Shown here in pieces: positions 1,532-9,199 of a stretch of 64,000 nt of DNA. A model generated the notes under the pieces. It was not told the origin of the DNA. It worked only from the letters and a program-made list of their open reading frames with translations, and made no database searches. Location of the stretch: positions 544,001-608,000 of the forward strand of contig OZ240211.1 of NCBI GenBank assembly GCA_965197525.1. Reading direction: 5' to 3'. The DNA is from Nitrosopumilus sp. Its GTDB lineage: Archaea; Thermoproteota; Nitrososphaeria; Nitrososphaerales; Nitrosopumilaceae. Positions within the stretch are counted from its first letter, which is position 1, and the number at the start of each line of letters is the position of its first letter. The translations under genes were made by a program, and so were the position numbers.

Positions 1532-1580
1532 TTATTAATAATATACGCTTTAAGATTATAACTTTTGTTAATTAAAAAAA

Positions 1581-3217
1581 GGGAATTACATACTTGGATT
1601 ACATTATACGCCACTTATTTATAATACACCGATTATTAACTGGATGGAAAAAGAAATAGGAGATTTTATTTATAGAACAGTGATTGTAAAACCAAGGCAG
1701 ACAAAAGAACTGTCATTGAAGGCACGCAGGATTGCAAACTTTCAGACGTATTTTTTCAACATGGACGTAGAGGCAGGACTGGTTGAAAAATATGACAAAA
1801 TCAAGACAAGCCGTACCATTACTGACATACATCACACCATGCCATGGAGCAACAAATACCACACCAATGTGGCAACAACTGCGTTCCAACAGGGGCATGA
1901 TACGGCAGACAAACATTTGAAATCTTGCGCAAAAAAACGTAGGGTACGAAACTGGGCAAAAAAGACTGGCGGTAAGAACCACAACTGGCACACATCATTT
2001 AAAAATCTCAAACCAAACAAATGGATTGACAGAAACAGTTTGTTCAGAAACGCCAAAAATGCAAAACATGCATCCATAACAGTAAACGGTCAGAATCCCT
2101 CGCTAAGGATGGGAAAGTGGAAAAAACTGTACATGAACCTGCCCGGTATGGGCCAGGTGGAGCTGTTGTCGTCTTTGAAGAGTCTTCCAAAGCAACTGGT
2201 ATGTGAAAGAGACAAAAACAATACCAACAAGTTCTACCAGACCAACATTGTGTCATACAGGCTTGTAGAGAACACCAAAAAAATCACTGTCAATACAAAC
2301 GATTCGAACCGCACGTTTGAGATCCATCTGACACTAAAAATACAGAGACCTAAAAATACGGATCGTGCAGTCGTATGCGGAATAGACATGGGAGTTAGGA
2401 AATCCCTGGTAGTTCATGACGGAATAAACACCGATTTTTACAGGACGCCTTATACCTGTAGGAGAAAAAAAGATGATGTGATCTCAAAACAACAGTCAAA
2501 AAGAGACGGTTACAAACTGCATAGTAACAGATGGAAACAAAATGATCGTAAATTGAAGAAGATGGAAAAAACACTCAGCAACAGAAGAACCGAGCACAAT
2601 AATTTCCTTGCCAAACAGATTGTGATGAGAACAGGAGTAATAGTCATGGAAAAACTAAACATTGGCAATATGACTGCAAAAAATGAAAAGTGGAAAAGCG
2701 GCCTTAACAGGGAGATTTACGGGGCAGGTATGGGAAGAATGGGAAAGAGAATAAAAATGACTGCCGAAAACCATGGAACCAAAACGCTTGAGATTGTTCC
2801 ACATTACACCAGCATAACGTGTAGTAGGTGCAATATGATCAACTGTGACTCTAGAACTACAAGGGATGTGTTTCAATGCGTATACTGTGGATTTCTGTGC
2901 GATGCAGACGATAACGCAGGCGCAAACATCAGACATTACGGACTTCCGTGCATACGAAGGCTCCCGCTTGTAGACAGATATGGAAACTACAGGTATGACA
3001 GCATGGAAAATATTATTTTAGCTAATAAAAATGGCACATCTAATAGTGTCAGTGTTATTAGTGGCGGTAGGGATTATCGTCACAAGACAGAAGAATCAAA
3101 ACATGGCTTACACCATGTTGTTTCTAAAAAAGACGGCAAGAACCAAGCTGTGAATGATTTGTTGGACTGTCAGAAAAAAACCTTGGTGCAGAAACGTAAC
3201 CTAGGTATATAATTCCC
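1581..3217 (+). mobile_element. TIR-bounded tnpB-only element, family A (1637 bp)
   Basis: 25-bp imperfect TIR (GGGAATTACATACTTGGATTACATT vs GGGAATTATATACCTAGGTTACGTT, 20/25); 8-bp TSD TAAAAAAA at 1573-1580 and 3218-3225; ends confirmed by second copy at 18158-18543. Confidence 0.9.
1644..3212 (+). CDS. tnpB: TnpB-family RNA-guided endonuclease, 522 aa
   Basis: RuvC-I GIDMG, RuvC-II VMEKL, Zn finger CSRC..CVYC, RuvC-III DADDNAGANI; long C-terminal tail. Confidence 0.9.
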   Translation: MEKEIGDFIYRTVIVKPRQTKELSLKARRIANFQTYFFNMDVEAGLVEKYDKIKTSRTITDIHHTMPWSNKYHTNVATTAFQQGHDTADKHLKSCAKKRRVRNWAKKTGGKNHNWHTSFKNLKPNKWIDRNSLFRNAKNAKHASITVNGQNPSLRMGKWKKLYMNLPGMGQVELLSSLKSLPKQLVCERDKNNTNKFYQTNIVSYRLVENTKKITVNTNDSNRTFEIHLTLKIQRPKNTDRAVVCGIDMGVRKSLVVHDGINTDFYRTPYTCRRKKDDVISKQQSKRDGYKLHSNRWKQNDRKLKKMEKTLSNRRTEHNNFLAKQIVMRTGVIVMEKLNIGNMTAKNEKWKSGLNREIYGAGMGRMGKRIKMTAENHGTKTLEIVPHYTSITCSRCNMINCDSRTTRDVFQCVYCGFLCDADDNAGANIRHYGLPCIRRLPLVDRYGNYRYDSMENIILANKNGTSNSVSVISGGRDYRHKTEESKHGLHHVVSKKDGKNQAVNDLLDCQKKTLVQKRNLGI

Positions 3218-3234
3218 TAAAAAAAAATAATGTA

Positions 3235-4811: not shown

Positions 4812-5199
4812 GGTTCTGTGAAGTTATAGAGACCTGAAACATGGATGAATAAATATCGTTAATTATATCATAATTATGTTGAATCCAACAAACACGAACA
4901 CGCAATGTCCAGGATGCGGAAAGATATTCCAAGAGGACATGCAATACAGACGTAAAATATCGTGTACCAATTGTGGATTGTTCATGAACAGCAACAACAT
5001 TGTCATGAACACATCTCACAAGCTGTCCCCTAGATTTAGGGATAGTAGAGGTGACATACATGAAGCACAGACTAACACTTTTGAGTTAGCAATGTCGGAA
5101 CCCAGTACACAGGTAATCCGAATAGTCGATATGTCAAAGTCAAGTAATAGGAGAAACACACCTTGGTAAATCAACGGGTACCTATAACTTCACAGAACC
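4812..5199 (+). mobile_element. Non-autonomous family-B derivative (388 bp) retaining the tnpB 3' end
   Basis: Perfect 18-bp TIR GGTTCTGTGAAGTTATAG at 4812-4829 and 5182-5199; interior homologous to the 3' end of tnpB at 55021-56223; no TSD. Confidence 0.88.
4876..5169 (+). pseudogene. tnpB: tnpB 3' fragment (Zn finger, degenerate RuvC-III, tail)
   Basis: TQCPGCGK..CTNCG..PRFRDSRGDI..VIRIVDMSKSS matches family-B TnpB; RuvC-III Asp lost. Confidence 0.88.
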
Positions 5200-5237: not shown

Positions 5238-8200
5238 TCAGTTCTCGGCTGTTGCCCAGAAAGGCTCGTCTAGCAGAGGATCTGGTTCTTGTGGTACAAA
5301 TTCTCCTCTAAGTGGCGCCTCGCCTAGCATCAAGGATTCCCAGTACTTGAAGGATGCAGTTCCTACAGCATCGCCAATCTCATCTATTACCTCTACAGAT
5401 GGCCAGAAATGAACTCCGGACCATACTCGACTAGCGCCACATTCGTAAGCATACTCAGTCCAAGTATCAAATTGGAGATGCACATCATTTGCTGGCGTAC
5501 CAACTTCCCACGCAGATGATCCTGCAGGAAGTAAGCCTTGGTAGGCACCTACCATATTACCGTTCGTGTCTACATATTGACCTATCTCATCAGTGCCGCT
5601 AAAGAGTCTCCACACTGCAGCATCGACTGCACAGAATGATGCAGTTGCCGATGGGTATTCACCATGACCTGCAGTGCCAACATATGAAGTCCATTGACTA
5701 GCTGGAACTTGGGTCAGTTCACCTCCTCCTCCTCCAGGTGGCCCCCCACGGGCAGTTATCAACTCATCACCATACAGGTGTGGGATTGCAGATACAGGAC
5801 GTACAGCGTCGTAACGATTTTTCTCCTGCCATACTACGATACCCATATCATAGTTTGCCATATTAACTAAAAAGTCCCATTGGATAAAATCGACGACATC
5901 GTGGTAATTGCTAAGAGCGGGTCGGAACAATCCACCACGGAGTTTATTATCAAAGAATTCTACAAGCATCTTTTGTTCATCTGTAATGTTAGCTGCAACT
6001 TCGATTACCTCGTCGGCCTGTGCCTTGTAGGCATCTATATTTGCATAGTTGCTAGCAGTTGGCGGAGGTACCCGGAGATCACGAGGATCAAAGTCAGAGT
6101 ATGGCTCTACATTTGCATACTGGGGTGTAAGAAACTTTTGTGGAGCAAGTTCGCCTTGAATGTTTGGTGCATTCAGAGGCTGCCAACGTGTTGGATCAAC
6201 TAACACATCAACTGTGTTTGTAGGAACGTAACCAGTGGTATCACCAAATGCAACGCCGTCAGTCTCAAGGCCAAGCTGATTAAAGCCATCGTGTCTGTGG
6301 GCATCCAGTACACATTTACCTGCAAAGTTGCCTATTGCTACCGGTGAAGATATGCTCTGAGGTACGCTACAATCAAGATCAATACCGCTGTTATCATCTG
6401 GGTCAAATCCGTGAACGGTCATCATGGATCGCCAATCGTCTGCACGGCCTGGTGCAAACTCGAGCATCATTTGGTACACAGCGTGCATGATTGAAGTGTT
6501 AGGATTCTCGTTTGTCTCAGACTCTGAGGCAGGCAAACGATCTATACGCGACTGTACACCTACTGCGGTCTCGTGGTATGGAGCTACAGCATCAAATGCA
6601 CCGTTAAGCAACAATGTAACAATACGGAAGATGGGAGGAGGGTCGTTAAAGTTAGAAGACACATCTTGTTTTATGAAGGGGGCAAGATGCGGAATGAATA
6701 CACCGTGTAGAGAATTACCGTTTACCATGTCAAATTCATGGTCACGACTCTCAAATGCTATGGGAGGATCTTCGACTACACCAAAGTCTGCCCATACACG
6801 TGTTGGGGCATAGTCAGACATGGTATATGGATCATCGATTACTGTGTCTTGAGAGTATATCAAGGGTGCAGACGAAATTGATGGGGAGCTAGATGACTGT
6901 GCGTCAGGGTGAGATATAAAGGCTGATTGATAGTAACCTGCTCCAAATATGTATCCGTCATGCATTACAAGCCAAGAACGCTTCTCTTCTGCATAATCTG
7001 AACCAGGTAGTGGGAATAGATAGTCAACCCAAACACCTTCGTTATTTGAAAGATCCTCAAGAATTTGATCAGGTGGGGTATCAATTGACCCATCAAAGAA
7101 TATTGAGGTAACACCGACTCTGTCAGGATTTGCTCCGTGTGCTACAATTAACGCACTAGATGAATCTACTACAAACGGATAATGTGGATCCAGTGAGGTT
7201 TGGGTCAAGAGTTTAAAGGCATCTTTATCTTGTTCATAAAGAGCAATGGCGTTGTTTACTACACGTTTGACCTTTTCTTCTGCAGGATATGTGTATCCAT
7301 GTGCAAGAATATATTCACCATAGTCATCTAGCATACCTGCAGCCTGAGCTGGTTCACCAGTTGCAGGATTAATTATCAACACATATGCCCTGATGGGTTC
7401 ATCTGTGTTACGAAGTATTTCTGCAAAGTCCATCCAAGGTATTGGCAATGGTGGAAGGGGACCGCCGACTCTATGAGGTTGCCTAGAATTGGCAACTTCT
7501 ATGCCGGCAACAGGATCAAAGACTGACGCATACTGTCCTCGATCACTTGCAGTCGTAATAATCTCAAATGCCTCATCGCCCTTCATATCAAGTAGATCAA
7601 TAGTATTTTGGATTCCGTCAGCTAATTTTTCGTCTATGGAATAGTAGTATCCAGAACCAAAGATATACCCATCATGCATTACAAGCCAAGAACGTTTTAG
7701 TTGATCCAAGTTGGTTACGGGATTTACAAAGACATAATCAGCCCAGACACCCTCACCAGTCTCTAATTGAGCAATGATCTCATCAGGTGGATTGGTTGCA
7801 AACTCACCAATAACTGCAGACTGCATGCCAATTACTCCAGGATTAGAACCATGAGATACAATGGTTCTAGTGTCAGGATCCAATACAAATGGATAATGAA
7901 GAACAGAGATATCAGATAGGGAATTTATGGTGTCAAAGGCGTTATCAGGGTCAGATTTGTACATCTCAACGGTTGCTGCTACTACCTGCTGTATATCAGA
8001 AGATCCTGCATCTTCAATTGAGATTATCAGATCACTTAACGTTGGGACACTCAGATCTATGCCATAGTCAGACAAAGTCTGATACGTTGATTGAGTAATA
8101 CATACCGGGAGTGGGACGGTATCAGAGTTTCGTATGTACAGATTTGTAGGTTCATTACACTGTACGCCATAAACAGAAACACCATCTCTTAGTTGCTGAT

Positions 8201-8297
8201 ACGGTGTCTGGTATTCAGCGTGTGCAAAGTCAACAGAATAAACACCAACAAACATCACTAGTATAATAAATATTGCAGGATGTGCAAATCTTGCCAT
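5238..8297 (-). CDS. Secreted protein: three Cache-like domains fused to a vanadium haloperoxidase-like (PAP2 superfamily) domain
   Basis: Signal peptide; repeats HYPFV..HG.NP..GVW.DY..KRSWLVMHDGYIFG.GYY; C-terminal KNRYDAVRP, HGEYPSATA, SRVWSGVHF. Confidence 0.8.
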   Translation of the reverse strand: MARFAHPAIFIILVMFVGVYSVDFAHAEYQTPYQQLRDGVSVYGVQCNEPTNLYIRNSDTVPLPVCITQSTYQTLSDYGIDLSVPTLSDLIISIEDAGSSDIQQVVAATVEMYKSDPDNAFDTINSLSDISVLHYPFVLDPDTRTIVSHGSNPGVIGMQSAVIGEFATNPPDEIIAQLETGEGVWADYVFVNPVTNLDQLKRSWLVMHDGYIFGSGYYYSIDEKLADGIQNTIDLLDMKGDEAFEIITTASDRGQYASVFDPVAGIEVANSRQPHRVGGPLPPLPIPWMDFAEILRNTDEPIRAYVLIINPATGEPAQAAGMLDDYGEYILAHGYTYPAEEKVKRVVNNAIALYEQDKDAFKLLTQTSLDPHYPFVVDSSSALIVAHGANPDRVGVTSIFFDGSIDTPPDQILEDLSNNEGVWVDYLFPLPGSDYAEEKRSWLVMHDGYIFGAGYYQSAFISHPDAQSSSSPSISSAPLIYSQDTVIDDPYTMSDYAPTRVWADFGVVEDPPIAFESRDHEFDMVNGNSLHGVFIPHLAPFIKQDVSSNFNDPPPIFRIVTLLLNGAFDAVAPYHETAVGVQSRIDRLPASESETNENPNTSIMHAVYQMMLEFAPGRADDWRSMMTVHGFDPDDNSGIDLDCSVPQSISSPVAIGNFAGKCVLDAHRHDGFNQLGLETDGVAFGDTTGYVPTNTVDVLVDPTRWQPLNAPNIQGELAPQKFLTPQYANVEPYSDFDPRDLRVPPPTASNYANIDAYKAQADEVIEVAANITDEQKMLVEFFDNKLRGGLFRPALSNYHDVVDFIQWDFLVNMANYDMGIVVWQEKNRYDAVRPVSAIPHLYGDELITARGGPPGGGGGELTQVPASQWTSYVGTAGHGEYPSATASFCAVDAAVWRLFSGTDEIGQYVDTNGNMVGAYQGLLPAGSSAWEVGTPANDVHLQFDTWTEYAYECGASRVWSGVHFWPSVEVIDEIGDAVGTASFKYWESLMLGEAPLRGEFVPQEPDPLLDEPFWATAEN

Positions 8298-8542
8298 GAT
8301 AATAGAGTATGGTTTACAGCAGATTAATAAATGAATCGAGGATATAAAGCGCTGCGCTATTCAATTTTATTTACCAACACAAGTACTAACTAATCTACGT
8401 TTGTTCCGATCAGGATAATAACACCAAGCACCATTCTTATCTCAAAGATGCTGTTTTAACTATAAATCTTGACATGTTCTATTATGGATAGGAACTCTTT
8501 TTGGTTGCTCTCCTCTCTATTAAATAAATACCCTATGCCAAC

Positions 8543-9199
8543 TTGCAGATATTATATCAAACAGGAATCGTTAATAATAAATCATGGACAGAACGCCTAC
8601 AAGATATGGCAGATGAATTAGAGTACAAACATGAGGTCAGCATACAAGAAAGAGAAGGAGATCATTTGATTCCAAATGAGATCAAAGACGAGTTAAGAAC
8701 ATCAGGAATGATGGATTTAAAAGGAAAATTGAAATTAAAGGGTGTAAGCCCCAAGATGCTAAAGAAGATGAAGCAAGAATATGTGGACTGTCCGGTGTGG
8801 GAAGACGATATTCATTTTATTCACTGTTTTGTTTGTCCAAACTTTCAAAGCAGGGTAACAGGCAAAGTGCTCTGCAAGGGCGATCCCATAAGTTCGGACA
8901 TGGATACAGTAGAGCACAAATTCAAAGTAGGAATCAAGATAAGCAAAGAGAAACAAAAGATCTCAAATAAACTCAAAGAGAGATTGAAGACTCTTGGAAT
9001 GATTGATGAGGATAAAAAGATACAATTAGAAGGAGTTGATCAAATGATGCTCAAAGGTATGAAACAAGAATATGTGGATTGTCCGGTGTTAAAAGAGAAA
9101 GTTCAACACATAGAATGCTCCATATGCCCAAATTTTCAAGCCAATGTAATGGGCAGAGTACTCTGTAAAGGCGAACCAATTTCAGATTTATCATTGTAA
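8543..9199 (+). CDS. Conserved hypothetical protein with tandemly duplicated Cys-rich domain
   Basis: Two copies of MKQEYVDCPV..HxxCxxCPNFQ..V.G.VLCKG.PI. Confidence 0.75.
   Translation: MQILYQTGIVNNKSWTERLQDMADELEYKHEVSIQEREGDHLIPNEIKDELRTSGMMDLKGKLKLKGVSPKMLKKMKQEYVDCPVWEDDIHFIHCFVCPNFQSRVTGKVLCKGDPISSDMDTVEHKFKVGIKISKEKQKISNKLKERLKTLGMIDEDKKIQLEGVDQMMLKGMKQEYVDCPVLKEKVQHIECSICPNFQANVMGRVLCKGEPISDLSL

Follow-up and report, generated by a model that had tools for sequence, protein, structure and literature searches.

What would an exported protein of the vanadium haloperoxidase (VHPO) family do in an ammonia-oxidising archaeon (AOA), and why is it fused to a row of Cache domains, which are normally sensors? 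The question is raised by an open reading frame (ORF) of a Nitrosopumilus sp. genome (GCA_965197525.1), located in the window that we analysed, a stretch of 64,000 nucleotides covering positions 544,001 to 608,000 of contig OZ240211.1. Positions below are those of the window, the VHPO-fusion gene lies on its minus strand, and residue numbers refer to the 1019-amino-acid product. The ORF (5238-8297) begins with ATG, carries no internal stop and is intact, and the full-length homologues of its Cache-VHPO protein are 47-81% identical. The host genome of 2.21 Mb is a single contig, 99% complete, and holds the VHPO part in a single copy; an artefact or chimeric assembly was ruled out by this single-contig genome together with at least ten clusters of full-length homologues. 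The answer that we favour, and to which we give about an even chance, is that the protein is an exported, probably dimeric, site-selective VHPO, likely a bromo- or iodoperoxidase, flexibly tethered to a Cache array that binds small carboxylates.

A haloperoxidase domain of the selective clade

By sequence and fold, the VHPO domain is a member of the selective NapH1/esVHPO clade. The best PDB sequence match was esVHPO of Enhygromyxa salina (E 7e-110 over residues 518-991, far beyond chance), with further matches to XhnO11 (E 6e-90), NapH1 (E 7e-75) and NapH3 (E 9e-74). The two-bundle fold of this clade (DUF6851 and VCPO_2nd) was detected above the Pfam cut-off, and the Foldseek comparison of the AlphaFold2 model gave template modelling (TM) scores of 0.93 to XhnO11 and 0.87 to NapH1, while those to fungal vanadium chloroperoxidase were ≤0.46. 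The structural match to the non-selective CiVCPO and ZgVIPO1 was far weaker (E about 1e-8, 16% identity), and no PAP2 Pfam match was found at the gene. An ESM Atlas feature search gave 0 matches, and the structure search returned bacterial VHPO clusters only. An earlier note on this DNA, made from the sequence alone, had named three VHPO motifs; all are present, beginning at residues 826, 878 and 956, and the Pfam, PDB and Foldseek results agree with its family assignment.

The active site was mapped by pairwise alignment to esVHPO, in the numbering of PMC12633397. The equivalents of the vanadate ligands K373, R380, S427, R490 and H496 are K826, R833, S883, R957 and H963, and these five, along with D783, K785 and H878, are invariant among 106 homologues. 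At position 885, which corresponds to S429, 76 of the 106 have Thr, the other 30 have Ser and none has His, and the gate position 783 is Asp in every homologue, compared with Glu (E327) in esVHPO. In the latter enzyme S429 and K329 form the catalytic dyad, which NapH3 lacks (PMC12633397). No characterised VHPO with Thr at the dyad position was found in the literature searched. The earlier note was right that the acid-base His is missing, the CiVCPO His404 position being occupied by Thr885, but it took for an anomaly what is normal here: esVHPO, NapH1 and XhnO11 all have Ser at that position. The alignments thus mark the absent His as a hallmark of the selective clade and not as a defect. Its interpretation as an oddity or a phosphatase sign was ruled out by the Ser or Thr of all 106 homologues and of the solved clade members. 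The note also overlooked K785, the haloamine lysine and dyad partner, and its phosphatase option is unlikely because Thr885 and K785 stand at the positions of the esVHPO dyad. By analogy with the characterised enzymes, it is quite probable that the domain is an active halogenating VHPO.

The quinolone pocket of the alkyl-quinolone (AQ)-type enzymes (H436, G334, D355, N359 and T358 in esVHPO) is only half kept, with D355 and N359 present as D808 and N812 and with H436 and T358 replaced by D892 and V811. The L333/G334 segment becomes G789/L790, in which G334 aligns to L790 in a register uncertain by one residue. Quinolone bromination by esVHPO is nearly lost in the H436A and G334F variants (PMC12633397). 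Since the H436 and G334 equivalents are altered here and vary widely across the clade (106 homologues), an acceptor other than quinolone is likely. With the AQ-type enzymes the protein does share a predicted signal peptide and a location outside biosynthetic clusters.

Tandem Cache repeats with carboxylate-type pockets

The N-terminal half contains three repeats of about 120 residues each, of which repeats 1 and 3 are 44.5% identical (E 5e-36) and repeat 2 is 26-33% identical. The AlphaFold2 model of residues 28-462, with a predicted local distance difference test (pLDDT) score of 90.6, comprises three alpha/beta units whose structure matches are single Cache domains, namely 4k08 (Z 12.1, root-mean-square deviation 2.8, 123 aligned), 5g4y (Z 12.0) and 4exo (Z 11.4); TlpB was also among the best structural matches, which ranged from Z 10 to 12. 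The three tandem Cache-like repeats proposed earlier were thus recovered in the predicted structure. With the protein as query, Pfam dCache_2 scored below its gathering cut-off; the support for the Cache assignment therefore comes from structure and from homologues, sCache_2 matches having been obtained in 37 of 64 aligned relatives. Profile searches of PDB sequences with the repeats yielded nothing useful.

In the sensor PscD, C2-C3 carboxylates are held by Y90, H103, Y143 and K156 between W92 and W145, and the pocket residues of Adeh_3718 are identical (PMC5062169); the pocket His marks pyruvate- rather than lactate-binders (PMC12415202). Mapped by sequence and not by superposed coordinates, these six positions align to Y373, F375, H387, Y426, F428 and K439 of repeat 3, and repeat 1 holds all six as well (Y135, F137, H149, Y188, F190 and K201). 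Repeats 1 and 3 thus show the single-Cache fold of sCache_2 with the Y/H/Y/K set and both aromatics, whereas repeat 2 lacks the pocket His and Lys, yet is 63-88% conserved among close homologues. The Y, F, H and K of repeat 3 are kept in 10 of 10 aligned full-length homologues, while the repeat 1 pocket is eroded in several, and among the repeats of unfused arrays only 148 of 391 have the full Y/H/Y/K set. Judging from these residues, Cache 1 and 3 are likely to bind small carboxylates.

The layout of a Cache receptor, in which a membrane helix follows the Cache domain and leads to a cytoplasmic output domain, was not found. The only hydrophobic stretch, by hydropathy and by eye, is residues 4-22, with no C-terminal membrane helix, and this stretch with the A-x-A at 25-27 is consistent with the signal peptide and export claimed earlier. 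The host genome contains no signalling domain (MCPsignal) of methyl-accepting chemotaxis proteins (MCPs), and none of its 10 Cache-repeat ORFs has a C-terminal membrane helix; these ORFs are therefore not ordinary receptors. Three of them share the front end of a WING module and three Cache repeats, with no enzyme. In the full-length model the linker falls below pLDDT 50, the predicted TM score is 0.59 and no fixed domain arrangement is predicted; a complex prediction of the VHPO domain with the Cache module scored 0.29 against a mark of 0.32 and was not used either way.

At six loci of the host genome (contig C1: 212425-215025, 251624-252886, 278139-279578, 734641-736059, 2005338-2006810 and 2156300-2159192), secreted arrays of 3-6 Cache repeats stand alone, with no output domain and, for the most part, with intact carboxylate-type pockets. 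The array at 734641 has a GC content of 51.5%, far above that of the genome. A WING-SBP_bac_3-Cache gene in the same genome is split over two frames.

Recurrent pairing, distribution and origin

Four architectures were observed: WING-3 Cache-VHPO, WING-5 Cache-VHPO, 6 Cache-VHPO and VHPO-6 Cache, the last with the VHPO before the Cache repeats (P0016, P0232 and P0234). A single clade for all fusions was rejected by the approximately unbiased (AU) test (p 3.85e-57), while the monophyly test of the WING-type fusions gave p 0.35. The reversed order needs a separate fusion event, and by topology and domain order the Cache-VHPO fusions arose independently at least twice, once in reverse order. The two modules are also found as neighbours: in G125 an unfused VHPO gene is directly followed by a six-Cache gene, at two loci a three-Cache gene lies 1-2.4 kb from the fusion, and in G383 (L042:130-3533) a seven-Cache gene overlaps in another frame with the sequence for the C-terminal half of a VHPO, which is either the deleted remnant of a VHPO/Cache pair or an assembly join.

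The VHPO is present in 16 of 401 Nitrosopumilaceae genomes, from three genera and with up to three copies each. All 16 carry Cache repeats, which occur in 52 of the 401, and among the genomes with at least eight Cache matches 15 of 17 have the VHPO, compared with 1 of the remaining 384. The survey of symbiotic versus free-living AOA suggested by the earlier note ties the gene to symbionts by a marker, with the habitat itself read from that marker: LIV-type permeases, reported from about 80% of the AOA of sponges and from 7% of free-living AOA (PMC13552627), were found in 16/16 VHPO genomes and in 92/401 overall. The VHPO trees, scored by the Shimodaira-Hasegawa-like approximate likelihood ratio test (SH-aLRT) and with many unlabelled tips, nest the archaeal VHPOs among bacterial ones (outgroup Microbulbifer-type; SH-aLRT 94 for the group with labelled archaeal rows) and place the query in a separate sponge-symbiont clade, apart from esVHPO. 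The close homologues with a named source are those of Cenarchaeum sp. SB0661/SB0675, Ca. Poriferisocius and Acidimicrobiia, which we take to be sponge symbionts. The phylogeny suggests that the archaea received the VHPO from bacteria. Recent foreign DNA left no signal, the GC content at third codon positions being 0.33 for the gene and 0.38 on average for long ORFs.

Several further arrangements were seen. The locus in G125 (L041:1920-14961) holds two VHPO and two six-Cache genes, one of them LVIVD-fronted, within 13 kb and near purK, and a five-Cache fusion (P0011) is located between purE and purK. A TauE-family anion exporter and a three-Cache gene recur beside the fusion in relatives (L001/L045:2181-7533, L074:4405-9921 and L034:4625-7176), and the host genome has this pair elsewhere, away from the VHPO. 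In P0269 the VHPO is fused instead to an ANF_receptor/PBP1 (periplasmic-binding-protein) ligand-binding domain, L073:3038-7605 encodes HYR-Ig-VHPO followed by a second VHPO, and in the fragment P0003 three VHPO units follow one another. P0197, an incomplete but almost identical copy of the fusion that is labelled as the bacterium Ca. Palauibacter and nests within the archaeal cluster, is either a misbinned contig or a transfer.

Explanations weighed

Under the favoured explanation, the analysis shows the residues, the predicted folds, the distribution and the repeated fusion; the export and purpose of the protein, its use of vanadate, its halide and ligand, its dimeric state and its host are inferences. 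The protein would be exported by Sec to the space outside the membrane, and vanadate would sit on H963, held by K826, R833, S883 and R957 as in esVHPO. Hydrogen peroxide and seawater bromide would give an oxidised halogen carried as bromamine on K785, with T885 assisting and D783 gating by homology, and the halogen would then move on to an organic molecule from outside that occupies the distal pocket and is probably something other than an alkyl quinolone. AQ-type VHPOs are secreted, encoded outside biosynthetic clusters and directed at substrates that others produce (PMC11312541); taking them as a model, the enzyme may disarm foreign signal or toxic molecules. The ligands of Cache 1 and 3 would be C2-C3 carboxylates, acetate or pyruvate for example, and the array would either keep these acids near the enzyme or position the enzyme at the cell surface, without an allosteric switch. 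The enzyme was probably acquired by the archaea from sponge bacteria. A bolder version, doubtful in our view, is that sponge-symbiotic AOA run a carboxylate-coupled extracellular halogenation, in which the Cache arrays capture a (keto)carboxylate and feed or gate the VHPO, and would be direct organobromine or organoiodine producers in the sponge, using otherwise harmful peroxide.

Several observations weigh against the favoured explanation. Most archaeal VHPO copies lack a Cache fusion, and the Cache array is therefore dispensable; Cache arrays are also fused to LVIVD, cupredoxin, DUF285 and SBP domains, and the recurrent pairing may reflect module abundance. The VHPO/Cache co-occurrence is one among kin, counted with a Cache profile built from relatives of the query, and its p-values are for both reasons too strong. 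The pocket map comes from a weak 4k08 alignment (E 0.065) in which the first Tyr was shifted one residue by eye. Thr885 and Asp783 stand where the characterised esVHPO has Ser and Glu, and the host is probably, by the LIV marker and the homologue sources, a sponge dweller.

The Cache array might be incidental, an active VHPO having been shuffled together with the commonest secreted module, so that the array would add bulk, act as a spacer or anchor the protein, with a ligand unrelated to halogenation. The abundance of Cache-repeat ORFs in the host, including the three enzyme-free ones with the same front end, points this way, as do the many partners of the arrays, the joining of the VHPO family to Ig, HYR, RTX, SH3, GDSL and PBP1 domains, and the unfused majority. 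We nevertheless consider it unlikely, as the fusion stays intact in three genera down to 47% identity, the repeat 3 pocket is intact in fusions while most unfused-array repeats lack the full set, and fusion and gene adjacency have recurred.

A peroxide sink was also considered, in which halide oxidation (free hypoiodous acid or haloamine turnover) and Cache-held pyruvate, a known peroxide scavenger, would together clear external hydrogen peroxide. The catalase gap noted earlier was recovered, with no haem catalase, catalase-peroxidase or Mn catalase in the 99% complete genome; the pocket His is of the pyruvate type, catalase-negative AOA are relieved of oxidative stress by alpha-keto acids (PMC10432482), and oxidised iodide is freely released by esVHPO (PMC12633397). 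Against this, the oxidised bromide intermediate of esVHPO without acceptor is long-lived, with a half-life of 5 h on ice (PMC12633397), which makes acceptor-free selective VHPOs a poor sink design. Four AhpC/TSA proteins were found above the cut-off in the genome. Lack of catalase is common among Nitrosopumilaceae, whereas the gene occurs in only 16 of 401 genomes, and a sink seems rather improbable.

The modulation by ligand proposed in the earlier note would have a carboxylate at Cache 3 or Cache 1 switch halogenation on or off. The normal role of Cache domains as sensors, the best-kept pocket in the repeat beside the enzyme and the repeated fusion favour such gating, but it fits poorly with a linker of about 45 residues that is predicted disordered and varies in length, with arrays whose 3, 5 or 6 repeats precede the enzyme, follow it or belong to a gene of their own, with arrays that lack any output domain and with many unrelated fusion partners, and we regard it as quite unlikely. 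Least probable is a non-halogenating homologue, either a NapH3-like rearrangement enzyme or a phosphatase or phosphate binder with the same site: NapH3 is a close match, VHPO and type-2 phosphatase active sites are homologous and Thr885 and Asp783 are variants, but K785 is invariant, position 885 always has a hydroxyl residue, PAP2 gave no match and the leaving-group-protonating His of phosphatases is absent.

An assay with monochlorodimedone, as proposed in the earlier note, would probably give a false negative, judging from esVHPO and HZ11-VHPO, neither of which brominates this compound (PMC11312541).

Gene layout and genomic surroundings

The coordinates of the gene and its modules are given in Table 1. 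The two-Cys module reported earlier lies within the WING-49 module; C47 and C66 are invariant in the aligned homologues and probably form a disulfide. The TATA-like octamer upstream is a possible archaeal promoter with a short or no leader, and a bacterial promoter scan at the gene found nothing above chance.

Table 1. Features of the VHPO-fusion gene and its product.
Feature	Window positions	Strand	Remarks and basis
Complete ORF	5238..8297	-	Predicted signal peptide, WING-49, three single Cache repeats, linker and selective-clade VHPO
Predicted Sec signal peptide, residues 1-27, A-x-A cleavage site 25-27	8217..8297	-	Hydropathy; homologues with the same pattern
WING-49 module, residues 32-80, with C47 and C66	8058..8204	-	NCBIfam NF058652 above cut-off; alignment
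Cache repeat 1, residues 99-220, carboxylate-type pocket intact	7638..8003	-	Model, structure match, pocket residues
Cache repeat 2, residues 222-338, Cache fold retained, pocket without His and Lys	7284..7634	-	Model, pocket residues
Cache repeat 3, residues 340-458, pocket Y373 F375 H387 Y426 F428 K439	6924..7280	-	Structure match, alignment
Ser/Pro-rich linker, residues 462-510, variable length	6768..6914	-	Alignment; mostly pLDDT < 50
VHPO domain, residues 511-1019, DUF6851 and VCPO_2nd, NapH1/esVHPO type	5241..6767	-	Pfam above cut-off, PDB sequence match, Foldseek
D783 (esVHPO E327, anionic gate) and K785 (haloamine Lys; esVHPO K329, NapH1 K324)	5943..5951	-	Alignment
K826-x6-R833, putative vanadate ligands (esVHPO K373, R380)	5799..5822	-	Alignment
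H878..S883-A884-T885 (esVHPO S427, A428, S429)	5643..5666	-	Alignment
R957 and H963, predicted vanadate-binding His (esVHPO R490, H496)	5409..5432	-	Alignment
TATA-like octamer ending 26 nucleotides before ATG	8324..8331	-	Sequence; possible promoter

The gene sits between serB and a Cys-rich (CxxC) gene, and its neighbours are housekeeping genes. Several other Nitrosopumilus (G254, G406, G402, G183 and G229) have no gene in this gap, and homologues have different housekeeping genes or transposases beside them; a biosynthetic cluster was ruled out by the gap being empty elsewhere and the neighbours differing.

In the same gap, 39 nucleotides past the VHPO stop, lies a 388-bp element (4812-5199) with 23-nucleotide inverted ends that are 91% complementary, the end sequence of which occurs 7 times in the genome. 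The Cys-rich protein of 218 amino acids (8543-9199, plus strand) is an internal tandem duplication of what has about 100 amino acids in other Nitrosopumilus, always beside proS. Elsewhere in the window, a TnpB-like gene of 522 amino acids (Cas12f1-like TNB, OrfB_IS605) lies between 26-nucleotide inverted ends at 1580-3218, and a long trinucleotide-type repeat with poly-His, poly-Ser/Pro and poly-Asp/Gly frames lies between two genes at about 370-520. No serpin was found in the host genome.

Comparison with known systems and significance

Of the known enzymes, esVHPO (PDB 9PTR/9PTS) and the secreted AQ-type VHPOs (PMC11312541, PMC12633397) are alike in signal peptide and in the lack of a biosynthetic cluster, and esVHPO is also alike in the vanadate ligands, the haloamine Lys, the acidic gate and the equivalents of D355 and N359. 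The query differs from esVHPO in being archaeal, in its front end of 460 residues with WING and Cache modules, in Thr for S429 and Asp for E327, in Asp for H436 and G789/L790 for L333/G334, and in an extra Cys pair (C643/C662) and a C-terminal extension. NapH1 (3W35/3W36), XhnO11 (9L8X) and NapH3 (8CXL) share the two-bundle fold (TM 0.87-0.93) at 33-36% identity. NapH1 and XhnO11 have the same Lys, and Ser instead of His at the CiVCPO H404 position. All three are without Cache domains, NapH3 has no dyad, and NapH1 and NapH3 are enzymes of Streptomyces biosynthetic clusters; no paper was found on XhnO11. The non-selective CiVCPO and ZgVIPO1 share the K-x6-R, Ser and R-x5-H vanadate site, but in CiVCPO, unlike in the query, His404 is present and hypohalous acid escapes from an open site.

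On the Cache side, PscD (5G4Y), Adeh_3718 (4K08) and 4EXO have the same sCache_2 fold (Z 11-12), and the Y/H/Y/K set with sandwiching aromatics is shared by repeats 1 and 3, with Phe replacing both Trp of PscD. Known sCache_2 sensors are single domains on membrane chemoreceptors, whereas the query has tandem repeats, no membrane helix or signalling domain, and a genome without MCPs. Haber et al. reported Cache Pfams enriched in sponge-associated Thaumarchaeota as surface proteins, with no mention of haloperoxidases, vanadium, a fusion or a ligand (PMC7848895). In a literature search with most subscription papers outside it, no paper was found that joins haloperoxidases with Nitrosopumilaceae, Thaumarchaeota (in the relevant sense) or Cache domains, or that describes a selective VHPO in ammonia-oxidising archaea or a Cache-VHPO fusion.

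The selective VHPOs characterised in the cited literature are bacterial only. If the protein is active, archaeal symbionts of sponges would own a halogenating chemistry, which bears on who makes or modifies the halogenated compounds of sponges. The large sponge-symbiont clade, with its Thr and Asp active-site variants and varied pockets, might be of use for biocatalysis, and these claims are open to standard expression and assays. For the Cache arrays enriched in sponge archaea, the pocket residues point to C2-C3 carboxylates as the likely ligand class and to a use outside signalling.

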